From NCBI GenBank assembly GCA_003220225.1, contig QHRU01000045.1, positions 2,586 through 66,585 of the forward strand: a stretch of DNA of 64,000 nucleotides, in the 5' to 3' direction. Numbering within the stretch: the stretch's first letter is position 1; each line of letters opens with the position of its first letter. The position numbers were made by a program, and so were the translations under genes. Source of the DNA: Candidatus Rokuibacteriota bacterium (GTDB lineage: Bacteria; Methylomirabilota; Methylomirabilia; Rokubacteriales; CSP1-6). The notes beneath the pieces are model-generated. The model worked only from the letters and a program-made list of their open reading frames with translations. It made no database searches and was not told the DNA's origin. Shown here piece after piece: positions 11,874 through 51,440 of the stretch.

Positions 11874-11940
11874 CGCCACGGCTGCGCCGGGGCGGCCCGA
11901 GCGCTTGGGGGGTATGGGGGGCCATGTCGGGGCCCCCCAT
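11874..11940. repeat. REP/MITE-like palindromic intergenic element, copy A (tail + hairpin orientation)
   Basis: gccacggctgcgccggggcggcccgagcgcttggggggtatggggggccatgtcggggcccccca. It is homologous to copies at 23105, 30396, 32013 and 51372. Confidence 0.6.
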
Positions 11941-11943
11941 TTA

Positions 11944-12669
11944 CTAGACGGCCGCGGCGGCGATTTCCGAGAGGATGGCGGCCGCCGCCGCCCTGGGATC
12001 CGGCACGGCGGTGATCGGACGGCCGACCACGATCGCGTCGGCGCCCGCCCTGATCGCATCGGCCGGCGTCGCGACGCGCTTTTGATCGTCGACGCGCTCG
12101 GCGGGCCGGATCCCGGGCGTGACGATCACCCACCGCGGGCCCAGCGCGCGTCGCAGGAGCCGGATCTCCTGCGGGGAGGCCACGCAGCCGTCGAGCCCGG
12201 CCTCGCGCGCGCGCTCGGCGAGCCGCAGCACGTGCGCCTCCACGTTGGCGACGACCCCGACCTCCTCGAGGCCCTTGCGGTCGAGGCTCGTCAGCACCGT
12301 CACGCCGAGGCAGATCGGCCGCGCGACGCCGAAGTCCTTCGCCGCCTTGCCCGCGGCCTCCGCGGCCGCCCGCATCATCGCGCCGCCGCCGCCGGCGTGG
12401 ACGTCGAGCATCGCCACCCCGATGCGCGTCGCCTCGCGCACGGCGCCGGCGACGGTGTTCGGGATGTCGTGAAATTTCAGATCGAGGAACACGGGGAACC
12501 CGCGCTTGAGCGCGGTCTCGACGGCGGCGGGCCCGGCGGCCGTGAACAGCTGCGAGCCGATCTTGGCGCCCATCGTCTCGGGCGGTCCGGCCCCGGCCAG
12601 CCGCTCGAGGAGCCCGTCGGCCTCCTTCAGCGTCTCCACGTCGAGGGCGACCCAGAGCCGCTCAGGCAT
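11944..12669 (-). CDS. pyrF: Orotidine 5'-phosphate decarboxylase
   Basis: Translation motifs [10 protein letters not shown] and IVGRPI. The protein is 241 aa. Confidence 0.85.
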
Positions 12670-15600
12670 CGGCGTGGTATTCCTGCAGGCTCAGCACCTG
12701 GTGCTCGCCCTTGAGCAGCGCCTCGATGGCGCCGATGGCCGCCTGCGCGCCGTCGATCGTGAGGTAATAGGGGACGTTGAGGCTCACGGCGGCGCGCCGG
12801 ATGGCCGCCGAGTCCTTGCGCGCGCGCCCGTCCTCCGGCGTGTTCAAGACCAGCGCGATGTCGCCGCGCTTCATGAGATCCACCACGTTGGGACGATGGC
12901 CCTCGAGCACCTTGTACACGAGCTCGACGCTCATGCCGTGGCGCTCGAGCACGCGCGCGGTGCCGATGGTGGCCACCAACGAGAAGCCCATCTCCACGAG
13001 TCGGCGGGCCAGCGTGGTGATCGCGCGCTTGTCGCGGTTCTTCACGGAGACGAAGACCTTGCCGCTGGTCGGCAACGGCGAGCCGGCGGCGATCTGCGCC
13101 TTGAGATAGGCCTTGCGGAAGTCGCGATCGAGCCCCATCACCTCGCCGGTGGACTTCATCTCGGGGCCGAGCACGATGTCCACGCCCGGGAACTTGACGA
13201 AGGGGAACACCGACTCCTTCACCGCGATGTGCCGCAGCTCGCGCTCCTCGATCGGCGCCAGCTGGTCCACCGGCTCGCCGAGCAGCGCCCACGTCGCCAC
13301 CTTGGCGAGCGGCAGGCCGATGGCCTTGGAGACGAAGGGCACCGTGCGCGAGGCGCGCGGGTTGACCTCCAGCACGAAGATCGTCTCGTTGCGGATCGCG
13401 AACTGCACGTTGATCAGGCCCACCACGCCCAGGGCCTTCGCGAGCGCCTTGGCCTGGGCGCGGAGGGACTTCACCTGGCCCTCGTCCAACGAGTAGGGTG
13501 GGAGGGCGCAGGCGGCGTCACCGGAGTGCACGCCGGCCTTCTCGATGTGCTCCATCACGCCGCCCACGACGACGCGCGCGCCGTCGGCGACGGCATCGAC
13601 GTCGATCTCCAGCGAGTCTTCCAGGAACTTGTCGATGAGAATCGGATGGTCGGGCGCGGCCTCCACCGCCTCGCCGACGAACTGGATCAGGTCCTGGTCG
13701 TCGTAAACGATGCGCATCGCACGGCCGCCGAGCACGTAGGAGGGGCGCACGAGCACGGGATAGCCGAGCCGCTGCGCCACCTCCCGCGCCTCGGGCAGTG
13801 AGCGCACGGTGGCGCCGGCCGCCTGGTTCAGCCCGAGCTCGCGCAGGAGGTCGCTGAAGCGCTGGCGGTCCTCGGCGCGGTCGATGGCGTCGGGCGAGGT
13901 GCCGAGGATCGGTACGCCCGCCTGCTGCAGCGGCACCGCCAGCTTGAGCGGGGTCTGGCCGCCGAACTGGACGATGACGCCGAACGGCCGCTCCTTCTCG
14001 ACGACGTTCAGCACGTCCTCGAGCGTGAGCGGCTCGAAGTAGAGCCGGTCGGACGTGTCGTAGTCGGTGGAGACCGTTTCCGGATTGCAGTTGATCATGA
14101 TTGCCTCGACCCCTCGCTCGCGCAGCGCGAAGGCGGCGTGGACGCAGCAGTAGTCGAACTCGATGCCCTGGCCGATGCGGTTCGGTCCCGAGCCCAGGAT
14201 GATGACCTTCCGGCGATCCGTGGGCGGCGCCTCGTCTTCCTCCTCGTACGTCGAGTACAGGTAGGGCGTGTAGGCCGCGAATTCCGCCGCGCAGGTGTCC
14301 ACCGTCTTGAAGGTGGCGCGGATGCCCTGCGCCAGGCGCCGCGCGCGGATCTCGCCCTCGCGCGTGCCGGTGAGCCGCGCGATCCACGCGTCGGCGAAGC
14401 CGAGCTGCTTGGCGCGACGGAGCACGCCGGCGTCGGTCAGGCCGGCGCGGCGGATCTCGGGCTCGAACTCGACGATCTCGCGCATGTTCTCGAGGAACCA
14501 CGGGTCGATCTTCGTCAGCGCCTGGACCTCGGCCGCGCGCATCCCCCGGCGGAACGCGTCGCCGATGGCGAACATCCGGTCGGGGTTGGGCACGCGGAGC
14601 AGCGCCTCGACGTCGTCGTCGGTCAGCGGCCGGTCGAGCGACAGGCCGAAGCGGTCCTGCTCGAGCGAGCGGATCGACTTCTGCAGCGCCTCCTTGAACG
14701 TGCGGCCGATGGCCATGACCTCGCCGACCGACTTCATCTGCGTCGTGAGCGTGCGGTCGGCCTCGGGGAATTTCTCGAACGCCCAGCGCGGGAACTTCAC
14801 GACGCAGTAGTCGATGGCCGGCTCGAACGAGGCCGGCGTCTCCCGCGTGATGTCGTTGCGGACCTCGTCGAGGCGGTAGCCCACCGCGAGCTTGGCGGCG
14901 ATCTTCGCGATGGGGAAGCCGGTGGCCTTCGAGGCGAGCGCCGACGAGCGCGACACGCGCGGGTTCATCTCGATGACCACCAGCCGGCCGTCGTCGGGGT
15001 TCACCGCGAACTGGATGTTGGAGCCGCCGGTCTCGACGCCGATCTCGCGGATGATCGCGACGGCGGCGTCGCGCATCAGCTGGTATTCCTTGTCGGTGAG
15101 GGTCTGAGCGGGAGCGACCGTCACCGAATCCCCGGTGTGAACACCCATGGGATCCACATTTTCGATCGAGCAGATGATCACCACGTTGTCGGCGAGGTCG
15201 CGCATCACCTCGAGCTCGAATTCCTTCCAGCCGATGACCGACTCCTCGATGAGCACGGTGCCGGCCGGTGACTGCTGCAGCCCCCAGCGCACCGCCTCCT
15301 CCAGCTCCTCCGGGTTGTAGGCGATCGAGCCGCCGGTGCCGCCGAGCGTGAAGGAGGGCCGGATGATGGCCGGATACCCGGTGGTGCGGACGATGCGCTT
15401 CGCGTCGTCGATCGTACGCGCGTAGCCCGAGCGGGGGAGGGTGAGCCCGATGCCCTCGATCGCGCGCTTGAACAGCTCGCGATCCTCCGCCTTGCGGATG
15501 GCGGGGATCTTGGCGCCGATCAGCTCGACGCCGAAGCGCTCGAGCGTGCCGTCGTCGGAGAGCGCGACGGCCAGGTTGAGCGCCGTCTGACCGCCCAGGG

Positions 15601-50063: not shown

Positions 50064-50162
50064 GATCCCGGAGTATATCGCCTTGACTTCGCCGCAGGGC
50101 CGTCCCTAGAATGAACCACCGTTCAGTCAGCGCCCGCTGACCTCATCCCCAGGAGGGGACTG

Positions 50163-51353
50163 TTGGATTTCACACTGACTCCCGATCAAGAGGCGCTGCG
50201 CGCACGCGTGCGCACGTGGCTCACCGCTCACATCCCCGAGGACTGGAAGAAGTTCGGGCTGTCGGAGGTCCCGCGGCCCGAGGCCTATGAATTCCTGCGC
50301 AAGTGGCAGAAGACGCTGCACGACGCGGGGTTCATCGGGTTGACGTGGCCCAAGGAGTACGGCGGCCAGGGGCTGACCTTCGTCGAGGAGATTTTGCTCC
50401 ACGAGGAGATGGCGCTGGCCAAGGCGCCGCCCATGCTCAACATCCTCGGCGTGGGCATGGCCGGGCCGACGATCATTGCGTACGGCACCGAGGAGCAGAA
50501 GCAGCGCTACCCGGCCAAGATCCTGTCCTGCGAGGAGATCTGGTGTCAGGGCTACTCGGAGCCGAACTCGGGCTCCGATCTCGCCTCCCTGCAGACGCGC
50601 GCCGTCAAGGACGGCGAGTACTGGGTGATCAACGGGCAGAAGGTGTGGACCTCGCTCGCCCACGTCGCCGACTACATGATGCTGCTCGCCCGCACCGATC
50701 CCGCCGCGCCCAAGCACAAGGGCATCACCTATTTCCTGCTCGACATGAAATTGCCGGGCGTGACCGTCAAGCCGCTCAGGCAGATCACCGGTGACGCGGA
50801 GTTCAACGAGGTCTTCTTCGACAACGTCCGCGTGCACGAGAGCCAGGTCCTGGGCGGCGTCAACAACGGCTGGGCGGTGGGCCTCACCACGCTGATGTAC
50901 GAGCGGCTCGCGCTCGGCTTCGGTCTTCAGGTGAGGCTGCGCATCACGCTGCAGTCGCTCGTCGACATGGCCAAGCGCATCGAGAAGAACGGCCGCGCGA
51001 TCACCAAGGACCCCGTGATGCGGCAGAAGCTCGCCGCCCTCTGGATCGACACCGAGGCGCTCAAGTACACCGGCGCCCGCGCCGTCACGAAGCTGCTGCG
51101 GGGCGAGCTGCCGGGGCCCGAGGCCTCGACGGGCAAGATGGGCTGGGTCGAGACTCACCAGCGCCTGCAAGAGCTGGCCATGGAGATCCAGGGGCCGTAC
51201 GCGATGCTCGCGCGCGGAGCGGACGCCGCCGTCGACAGCGGGGTGTGGCAGTATTCGTTCCTCCGGTCGCGCGCCAACTCGATCGAGGGCGGCACGACCG
51301 AGATCCAGAAGAACATCATCGGCGAGCGCGTGCTCGGGCTGCCGAAGGGCTAG
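50163..51353 (+). CDS. Acyl-CoA dehydrogenase
   Basis: The protein is 396 aa with the ACAD N/M/C domain pattern; the C-terminus reads EGGTTEIQKNIIGE. Confidence 0.9.
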   Translation: MDFTLTPDQEALRARVRTWLTAHIPEDWKKFGLSEVPRPEAYEFLRKWQKTLHDAGFIGLTWPKEYGGQGLTFVEEILLHEEMALAKAPPMLNILGVGMAGPTIIAYGTEEQKQRYPAKILSCEEIWCQGYSEPNSGSDLASLQTRAVKDGEYWVINGQKVWTSLAHVADYMMLLARTDPAAPKHKGITYFLLDMKLPGVTVKPLRQITGDAEFNEVFFDNVRVHESQVLGGVNNGWAVGLTTLMYERLALGFGLQVRLRITLQSLVDMAKRIEKNGRAITKDPVMRQKLAALWIDTEALKYTGARAVTKLLRGELPGPEASTGKMGWVETHQRLQELAMEIQGPYAMLARGADAAVDSGVWQYSFLRSRANSIEGGTTEIQKNIIGERVLGLPKG

Positions 51354-51371
51354 GAAACTCGCGTGATCGAG

Positions 51372-51440
51372 GCGCGCCACGGCTTTGCCGGGGCGTGCCG
51401 AGCGCTGGGGGGTGTGGGGGGCCATTTCGGGGCCCCCCAC
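51372..51440. repeat. REP/MITE-like element, copy F (tail + hairpin), abutting the RBS of the downstream ACAD gene
   Basis: gcgccacggctttgccggggcgtgccgagcgctggggggtgtggggggccatttcggggccccccac. It is followed by ccaggagagacgcATG. Confidence 0.6.

Follow-up and report, generated by a model that had tools for sequence, protein, structure and literature searches.

Among the repeated palindromes described in bacteria, the repetitive extragenic palindromic sequences (REPs) and bacterial interspersed mosaic elements (BIMEs) of Enterobacteria and Pseudomonas are the closest counterparts of the elements considered here. Two REP super-families are defined by an unpaired GTAG or CGTC tag, and REP families are found mostly between unidirectional and convergent open reading frames (ORFs), less than 20 bp from ORF 3′-ends, where the REP termini supply stop codons; in-frame copies inside genes, one of them in a DNA ligase gene, are also on record (PMC3733652). 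The CGTC super-family was reported to have no dedicated transposase. In E. coli, REPs situated no more than 15 nt from a stop codon are reported to stall ribosomes (PMC12306157), and REPs and BIMEs are also binding sites for gyrase, IHF, and Pol I (PMC2817692). In REPINs (REP doublets forming hairpins), two inverted copies of one REP make up one long hairpin (PMC3116915, PMC3337134). In this work, we analyzed a family of two-hairpin repeats in a 64,000-nt stretch (hereafter the window) of the Candidatus Rokuibacteriota bacterium assembly GCA_003220225.1 (contig QHRU01000045.1, positions 2,586–66,585, forward strand) and in related genomes and metagenomes. Rokubacteria are abundant, uncultured bacteria of soil and groundwater with large genomes. 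The elements are best read as a REP/BIME-like family of repeated extragenic palindromes shared across Rokubacteria (Methylomirabilota), an explanation that we consider likely as a whole, its account of spread and RNA role included. The family is previously undescribed: no publication in the literature library searched has the core sequence or connects Rokubacteria to REPs.

Structure of the two-hairpin unit and its copies in the window

The core of the repeat (GGGGGGCCATNTCGGGGCCCCCC) was searched for with up to three mismatches in the window, which is about 72% G+C and rich in GC-rich low-complexity repeats, and the result was compared with dinucleotide-preserving shuffles of the same DNA. 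Seven matches were obtained, at 11916(+), 23108(−), 23140(−), 32013(+), 32085(+), 32156(+), and 51416(+), against 0.01 expected, and none of 100 shuffles reached seven. A covariance model (R1), built from 99 copies outside the window and run with the filters off, detected four full elements (74–98 bits) and four partial units on the two strands of the 64 kb. The sequence-only reading had described palindromic hairpins with a conserved tail at five loci, in both orientations, and the sequences at these loci were as described; the conserved tail is also real, though it amounts to more than a tail, as it contains a second hairpin and a G-run linker.

When 133 exact cores were lined up with their flanks, a unit of about 80–90 nt emerged, which has the organization (left module)-tCGAG-[HP1]-CGAGCG-yT-GGGGGG-TnT-[HP2]-An′ and the consensus aTCGAG-GAGCGCCaCGGC-TTC-GCCGGGGCGCTC-CGAGCG-yT-GGGGGG-TnT-GGGGGGCCATKTCGGGGCCCCCC-An′, where HP1 and HP2 denote the two hairpins. 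HP1 has a 13–14 bp stem, the sequence of which differs from copy to copy with the pairing kept; the middle of this stem holds a conserved position, A.G or C-G, and a tandem G.A extension could be formed by the CGAG motifs flanking HP1. HP2 is a near-invariant GGGGGGCC-ATKTCGG-GGCCCCCC stem-loop with an 8-bp stem, which is lengthened by a T-A pair and by a covarying N-N′ pair occurring in all four Watson–Crick forms (A-T 39, G-C 39, C-G 11, T-A 11). In some copies the arms of HP2 shorten jointly from G6/C6 to G5/C5, and GAGGGG/CCCCTC represents a compensated variant. With lengths of 23–27 nt for HP2 and about 35 nt for HP1, both hairpins are short G/C-rich imperfect palindromes in the size range of REPs (20–40 nt).

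The pairing was assessed in two alignments. In alignment A1 (99 sequences) 92.8% of the cells were paired, double changes occurred in 15 of the 24 pairs, and the covariation score was 0.213 versus 0.063 in shuffles, none of 500 of which reached the observed value, while slid partners gave 0.02–0.05; RNAalifold recovered both HP1 and HP2. Similar values (92.3% paired, double changes in 14 of 24 pairs, covariation 0.156 vs. 0.056) were obtained from alignment A2, comprising 102 independent metagenome copies aligned to R1, an alignment that leans towards this model. The predicted fold energy of the unit is about −50 kcal/mol on either strand, which makes the hairpins very stable. We concluded that the units constitute a true repeat family with selected secondary structure. 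In the stems, G.T pairs outnumbered A.C pairs by 66 to 34 (p = 0.002; 31 vs. 17, p = 0.06, for A1 alone), which is moderate evidence and suggests that selection acts on one single strand, namely the G-rich one. No U-tract follows HP1 or HP2, the latter being succeeded by A-n-n-T and a short mixed AT-rich stretch, and the terminator scan called none of the elements.

The four full elements of the window are designated E1–E4, and their surroundings, checked with Pfam, agree with the intergenic positions given earlier for them. E1 (11853–11943, +; R1 95.3 bits, E = 2.8e-16; fold −50.2 kcal/mol) comprises HP1 at approximately 11870–11898, the G-run at 11907–11912, and HP2 at 11914–11940 with the core at 11916–11938, and is placed between two convergent genes, a Roadblock/LC7 gene (+, stop at 11800) and pyrF (−), the stop codon of which (11944–11946, minus strand) is 5 nt from the core. 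E2 (23135–23224, −; 93.4 bits) also separates convergent genes, encoding a response regulator (+) and an AllG-like protein (−). Its HP2 is the compensated variant GAGGGGCC...GGCCCCTC, and the TAG stop of the AllG-like gene (23209–23211, minus strand) lies inside the element, where the left TCGAG motif reads TAGAG. Beside E2, an HP2-only unit (23106–23133, −; 21.8 bits, model positions 61–87) carries the core with one mismatch, 5 nt from the TAG stop (23100–23102) of the response-regulator gene (+). E3 (30394–30482, −; 74.0 bits; fold −54.4 kcal/mol) combines an HP1 of 13 perfect base pairs with a variant loop in HP2, GGGGGGCC-CTTCGA-GGTCCCCC, and lies in sense orientation between the lpxC stop (30506) and the start (30373) of the DUF4390 gene heading the DUF4390-ntrY-ntrX operon. 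E4 (51354–51443, +; 98.3 bits) was found between two acyl-CoA dehydrogenase genes, with the TAG stop of the first at 51351–51353 and the ATG of the second at 51454, 15 nt upstream of which the element was placed by the context check; three further contigs from this population, an abundant soil population whose acyl-CoA dehydrogenase was found in 148 data blocks, carry E4 as well. All copies in the window have housekeeping genes as neighbors.

In addition, Tandem Repeats Finder identified an array of 2.9 copies of a 72-nt unit with 96% identity at 32008–32211 (+; partial R1 matches of 34–43 bits), between an rsmE-type methyltransferase gene, the stop of which (32207–32209) falls within the last unit, and the start of the archease gene (32003). 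The array unit is composed of HP2 (cores at 32013–32035, 32085–32107, and 32156–32178) and a module X (ATCTCTTTTGAGAGCTTGCAACAGCGCATCACGCGTCTGCGGAGGTTT), without HP1. The 5′-half of module X also follows HP2 in another genome, at an unrelated locus (L004; loci outside the window are given L numbers), thus the assumption that the tail of the array is merely a duplicated local sequence was partly wrong. A CRISPR was rejected as well, since the units are 96% identical and have no variable spacers. Judged from its sequence, a T-tract followed by a −35-like TTGCAA, module X may be a terminator–promoter cassette, and HP2 followed by ATCTCTTTT in this module (array and L004) is the sole intrinsic-terminator-like exception in the family. 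The sequence shared after HP2 by the window (32036–32083) and L004 (at approximately 395–475) reads ATCTCTTT..AG..CTTGCAACA.C.CAT, and in the window module X faces against the direction of the flanking genes. Only 9 nt separate the hairpin from the archease ATG, in front of which stands AAACCCCCC, lacking a Shine–Dalgarno-like sequence.

Spread, placement and insertion polymorphism

The exact core was found at 112 or more loci in about 40 assemblies of species-representative genomes, and the metagenome scan revealed at least 120 further loci, mostly on soil contigs; the scanned viral contigs gave no match. The family had been taken for genome-specific from the window alone, and this view has to be abandoned, as the 23-nt core is common to about 40 metagenome-assembled genome (MAG) assemblies and many soil contigs. 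In the fetched loci, R1 matched 178 (genome) and 160 (metagenome) times. Copies without the exact core, on which ascertainment did not rely, have a density of about one per 15 kb, and single MAGs have about 20 loci each among the matches listed; extrapolation from this density, which is not a direct count, gives a copy number of a few hundred per genome.

Thirty-six of the approximately 40 assemblies are labeled Candidatus Rokubacteria, Rokuibacteriota, Methylomirabilota, or Methylomirabilia, and the remaining four Acidoferrum, Binatia, Anaerolineaceae, and "uncultured bacterium". Canonical elements were seen on contigs with such other labels (L006, L110 (Acidoferrum MAG), L058 (Binatia MAG), L047 (Anaerolineaceae MAG), and L004). 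These are most likely mis-binned Rokubacteria contigs, and the element could be used as a binning marker to flag such contigs.

The family proved to be modular. HP2 has the variant forms GGGGGGCTTCGNTAGTCCCCCC and GGGGGGCCCTTTCGAGGCCCCCC, an alternative HP1 (HP1b) reads GATCGAGC...GCTCGATC, and a longer left module, AGCCCGTGAACGAATCG, is present in some copies. At several loci (L018 4933–5063, L008 2514–2625, L045 123–234, L103 5793–5901, L112 901–1009, L080, and L082) the HP1 loop contains a small nested hairpin, GGTGCGTCCGCGCACC, in one or two copies, indicating that the repeats insert into, or recombine with, each other. Since HP2-only units, alternative HP1 and HP2 forms, and alternative left and right linker modules are all found, the organization is mosaic and BIME-like, including the combination with linker modules, but without alternating orientation: neighboring copies are same-strand direct repeats, mostly 90–110 nt apart.

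Gene arrangement across the loci was determined with a custom gene caller based on the G+C content of third codon positions. Among 100 element sites, 25 were convergent, 5 divergent, and 70 co-directional, compared with 14%, 14%, and 72%, respectively, for background adjacent gene pairs. Almost all units occupy sites with a gene 3′-end at hand. The sequence-only reading had suggested that the element perturbs 5′-untranslated regions, which fits only co-directional cases such as E3 and E4; regions holding only divergent promoters are avoided (5/100 vs. 14%). At the co-directional sites no orientation preference was seen (36 sense, 34 antisense), and a trans-acting small RNA or a cis-regulatory leader was rejected on account of this random orientation. 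The stop codon of an opposite-strand gene was within 60 nt of HP2 in 50 of 119 elements and at a distance of 0–6 nt in 36 of them, and on the HP1 side same-strand stops cluster 11–26 nt upstream of CGAG, at the position of the left boundary of the unit. No significant bias in stop-codon identity (TAG vs. TGA) was detected at the element-adjacent stops. The commonest neighbors across the loci are components of ABC transporters, and at 8 of 11 SBP_bac_5 (binding-protein) genes adjoining elements the unit stands directly after the stop codon; with a median pairwise identity of 26%, these genes represent independent loci. In E. coli and Salmonella, the classic REP positions are in the malE-malF and hisJ-hisQ operons, likewise after the binding-protein gene. 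The likeness to REPs extends to the extragenic location between convergent and co-directional genes with rare divergent sites, to the distance of less than 20 bp from 3′-ends, to the occasional supply of a stop codon, and to occasional in-frame copies inside genes. Integron attC sites, which are structured hairpins after cassette ORFs, were also considered and rejected because the neighbors are housekeeping operons and the core is invariant.

Comparison of orthologous sites revealed filled and empty states. A unit of about 140 nt occupies the junction between an hspR-like gene and lon in L014, and the corresponding junction of L106 is a spacer of 16 nt. The livG/livF junction of L051 (6883–7340) holds four tandem units of 99 nt; this junction is empty in the window (63415–63418), where it shows a 4-nt GTGA overlap, and in L210, with a 1-nt overlap. 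E4 is missing from the related genome of L088, in which the two dehydrogenase genes are 4 nt apart, and a TGA-GTG junction is filled in L028 and empty in L130. At one intergenic site upstream of the start of orthologous genes, in genomes 82–88% identical, L033 (5904–5993, +) and L099 (6967–7056, −) carry the element in opposite orientations, which implies independent insertions or an inversion. L099 also has an 84-nt (28-codon) segment with the HP2 variant GGGGGGCCTCGAAAGGGCCCCCC in frame in a LigD-like ORF (approximately 1880–1965), and the corresponding ORF of the related genome lacks this segment (L033, approximately 1002–1047). The in-frame segment resembles the intragenic REPs and Rickettsia palindromic elements (RPEs) of other bacteria. 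As the units are poor in stop codons and G/C-rich, ORFs are over-extended through them, and the covariance model helps annotation.

The number of tandem units also varies. At the rsmE-archease junction one unit was found in L236 and L239 (including GCA_009771655.1), two in L237 and L238, and three in the window, and the archease protein is identical in the contigs with 1-, 2-, and 3-unit arrays. The arrays thus behave as variable-number tandem repeats (VNTRs) and can serve as strain-typing markers. In this strain-variable copy number of intercistronic tandem units of about 70–100 nt, they are like the mycobacterial interspersed repetitive units (MIRUs), and in L051, and only in this subfamily, the likeness includes 33-codon ORF units that overlap their neighbors as ATGA; each 99-nt unit of L051 is such an ORF (MSTRELEECHGFPGALRALGGVGGHVGAPHVER), its ATG and TGA overlapping the neighboring stop and start. 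MIRUs are not strong palindromes, however, and most copies of the present family are single and have no through-reading ORF.

In a subset of the loci (L013, L069, L014, L063, L080, L072, L051, L035, and L028) the element is flanked by direct repeats of 4–7 nt, which hold the stop codon of the neighboring gene or the stop/start junction (TCAG, TCGG, CTAG, GATGAG, TAGTG/TGATG). A target duplication, the presence of which had been proposed as a check, is suggestive in this subset, but over all copies flank matches of 4–5 nt did not exceed the level of shuffled pairings, and tandem arrays accounted for most of the excess among longer matches (≥6 nt). Moreover, the intergenic spacers are very short (0–16 nt in the empty sites), therefore selection alone could have left the insertions at stop codons.

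Nature of the family and alternative explanations

In being multi-copy, intergenic, present in both orientations, hairpin-forming, and polymorphic at orthologous sites, the family agrees with the type of element originally proposed for it, a REP or miniature mobile element, and its members are probably non-autonomous mobile palindromic elements. REPs and BIMEs (PMC3733652) are, like these units, short G/C-rich palindromes, hundreds of which would be present per genome here by extrapolation, and ABC-transporter operons carry both kinds after the binding-protein gene. With the REPIN-RAYT system (REPINs with their REP-associated tyrosine transposase, RAYT; PMC3116915, PMC3337134) the family shares the non-autonomous state, the hairpins with compensatory stem changes, and the long persistence in what is apparently one lineage (about 40 assemblies, with four exceptions), a pattern compatible with vertical inheritance. 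In contrast to the two inverted copies of a REPIN, two different hairpins stand side by side here, and no flanking RAYT was seen in 1.6 Mb. In contrast to REPs, the unit joins two unlike hairpins in a constant head-to-tail order through a conserved G-run linker, and its 23-nt core is identical across many species-level genomes.

We propose that a trans-acting enzyme recognizing the conserved HP2 on one strand would spread and homogenize the non-autonomous copies, and that the copies would survive where genes and promoters stay unbroken. By analogy with the REPs of E. coli, the transcribed hairpin pair (about −50 kcal/mol) could form a 3′-end or intercistronic barrier protecting the upstream mRNA, for example, that of the binding-protein genes of ABC operons, and a further role may lie in stopping or insulating transcription between convergent genes. 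If the hairpins do set mRNA 3′-ends, given the few canonical terminators (see below), this would matter for gene expression in Methylomirabilota.

A mobilizing enzyme was sought among the neighbors of the elements. With the Y..NP[VL][RK] motif and tblastn searches using E. coli RayT, which was validated as a genuine RayT, and Salmonella IS200 TnpA, no RAYT or IS200-type Y1 transposase was detected in 1.6 Mb (0.86 + 0.74 Mb) around approximately 260 cores, a search of low power that would miss a single-copy gene about a quarter to half of the time. In a database search with RayT, all of the 120 proteins listed were from Enterobacteriaceae, and the search thus did not extend to Rokubacteria. In the fetched loci there was no HP1 without HP2 nearby and no locus with HP1 and HP2 split by a gene, which would mark a full-length parent, and no recurrent transposase was present among the neighbor genes, the largest clusters of which are ABC-transporter components. 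Of the ten genes flanked by elements on both sides, seven were checked with Pfam, and these are ordinary enzymes. No terminal inverted repeats were seen at the ends defined by filled/empty comparisons.

Several observations weigh against the REP/BIME-like explanation. The Rokubacteria consensus lacks the GTAG or CGTC tag, having instead CGAG around HP1 and T-n-T/A-n′ around HP2; clusters consist of direct tandem repeats of about 96–102 nt and not of alternating orientations as in BIMEs; no RAYT was found in the flanks; the 4–7 nt direct repeats that include a neighbor's stop codon in a subset of the loci are not expected for mobilization by HUH/RAYT enzymes; the lack of orientation preference (36 vs. 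34) argues against a strand-specific RNA function; and the proposed role at the mRNA level draws on analogy. Nevertheless, the missing RAYT has a precedent, since the CGTC super-family is also without a dedicated transposase. As a case with neither a GTAG/CGTC tag nor a visible RAYT, the family extends the phylogenetic distribution of REP-like repeats, and it is relevant to the question of how REPs lacking a tag are spread.

The strongest competitor, which we regard as possible though clearly second to a REP/BIME-like family, holds that the element is primarily a functional cis-acting RNA, that is, a clade-specific factor-dependent terminator or mRNA stabilizer kept by selection, with mobility being secondary. 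The extreme stability of the hairpins on both strands, the copies at 3′-ends and between convergent genes, and the recurrence after paralogous ABC binding-protein genes, as for the malE and hisJ REPs of E. coli, are in accordance with this idea. In the 20 kb between 11500 and 31400 of the window, one hairpin followed by a T-tract was found versus four expected from shuffles, and this single terminator-like site falls inside a gene, thus canonical intrinsic terminators seem essentially absent from this region. The units are indeed G/C stem-loops located just after stop codons, as intrinsic terminators are, and HP2 with ATCTCTTTT (array, L004) looks like one. On the other hand, in the standard unit neither HP1 nor HP2 is followed by a U-tract on either strand, and the sequence conservation seen in the unit is not a property of terminators: a terminator hairpin can do without a 23-nt sequence held constant between species, and this identity points to common descent or to a sequence-specific partner. 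The orthologous genes with empty sites manage without the element, no orientation preference exists, and some copies are in frame inside an ORF.

We consider it improbable that HP1 and HP2 are the left- and right-end subterminal hairpins of an HUH element of the IS200/IS605 type, a palindrome-associated transposable element (PATE) inserting beside a specific tetranucleotide and mobilized in trans by a TnpA/RAYT-like Y1 enzyme. The present unit resembles such elements in that its two subterminal hairpins differ and terminal inverted repeats are lacking, and the long-form subfamily is bounded by TCAG-like tetranucleotides, on the left about 23 nt before HP1 and on the right 6–10 nt after HP2. 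The ends of IS608 have a geometry like these long-form boundaries, and the two end hairpins of IS608 are alike. The excess of G.T over A.C pairs (66 vs. 34) fits the recognition of one DNA strand, and the lack of orientation bias relative to transcription fits a signal acting at the DNA level. However, HP1 and HP2 are dissimilar, in contrast to the alike end hairpins of IS608, no TnpA/TnpB partner or Y1 transposase was found in the 1.6 Mb of flanks, there is no locus with a gene separating the two hairpins, and the flanks co-vary (TCAG/TCAG, TCGG/TCGG, CTAG/CTAG, GATGAG/GATGAG) like target duplications, which HUH transposons do not make.

It could also be that the family is moved by a mobilizer other than RAYT, as a hairpin element without inverted terminal repeats whose insertion duplicates the target stop codon or stop/start junction and leaves both genes intact, with the 23-nt HP2 being recognized by a Rokubacteria-wide one-strand enzyme. 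We give this version no more credence than the preceding one, and if it were true, these miniature elements would form a new, "stop-codon-seeking" class instead of adding one more REP. Somewhat less probable still is a classical MITE (a miniature transposable element with inverted repeats) moved by a DDE transposase, with a target-site duplication of 4–7 bp at AT-containing sites, which are mostly stop codons at 72% G+C. Three filled/empty comparisons can be read in this way, the direct repeats including the stop or stop/start junction that occurs once in the empty site: TGAGTG became TAGTG...TGATG (L028 vs. L130), TGATG became GATGAG...GATGAG (L051 vs. L210), and TCAG stands on both sides of the unit in L014 (vs. 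L106). The right flank is also enriched in TCAA (9.7×) and TCAG (5.6×). Against the MITE, no terminal inverted repeats were found at any proposed boundary, and no transposase gene or full-length parent was present among the neighbors; shared flank words of 4–5 nt are at the level of shuffled pairings, with the excess at 6 nt or more mostly due to tandem arrays, and with empty-site spacers of 0–16 nt selection alone would put the surviving insertions at stop codons.

It is unlikely, and more so than the MITE, that HP2 is an immobile DNA site for a host protein, such as a nucleoid or gyrase/IHF-like protein, or a site for uptake signaling or recombination. As would be expected of such a site, the 23-nt core hardly differs between many species, in contrast to the variable remainder of the element, and binding of gyrase, IHF, and Pol I by E. 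coli REPs and BIMEs (PMC2817692) offers a parallel. No candidate protein has been identified, however; the covariation of the flanking pair and the joint shortening of the HP2 arms point to a folded single strand and not to duplex recognition, and some means of spreading would in any case be required for the insertion polymorphism and tandem expansion. Finally, chance similarity of G/C-rich palindromes, conceivable in a 72% G+C window full of low-complexity repeats and named at the outset as what could undo the family, is refuted by seven cores versus 0.01 expected, by R1 scores of 74–98 bits, and by hundreds of copies with an identical core and a conserved linker.

Further features of the window

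A second type of hairpin, GAGGGGGCC-TGGAC-GGCCCCCTC, is located directly upstream of E1, after the Roadblock/LC7 gene (11800–11851), and is preceded by a 19-nt tandem duplication, GAACCTCGGAGGGGGCCTG ×2.1 with 100% identity, detected by Tandem Repeats Finder at 11800–11839. Its pattern matched only in the window, in L074, where it follows a substrate-binding protein gene, and in L107. A weak R1 match (11822–11915, −; 24 bits) covers this hairpin, the family membership of which is uncertain. A related hairpin, GAAGGGGGCC...GGCCCCCTTC, was observed in L048.

Rfam gave no match at the gathering score in the whole window, and the permissive search with E4 yielded one chance-level match (E = 0.56). 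The ntrX-type sigma-54 activator gene (26202–27557, −) showed nucleotide matches of 72–75% over approximately 480–550 nt to several unrelated loci, twice in L031; a repeated mobile gene was rejected here, as the similarity corresponds to the conserved AAA+ sigma-54 interaction domain. Three CCG/GCC-rich tracts, at 3813–4002, 6230–6356, and 8543–8685, consist of imperfect tandem repeats (21, 39, and 42 nt) and presumably encode Pro/Ala-rich repeat regions.

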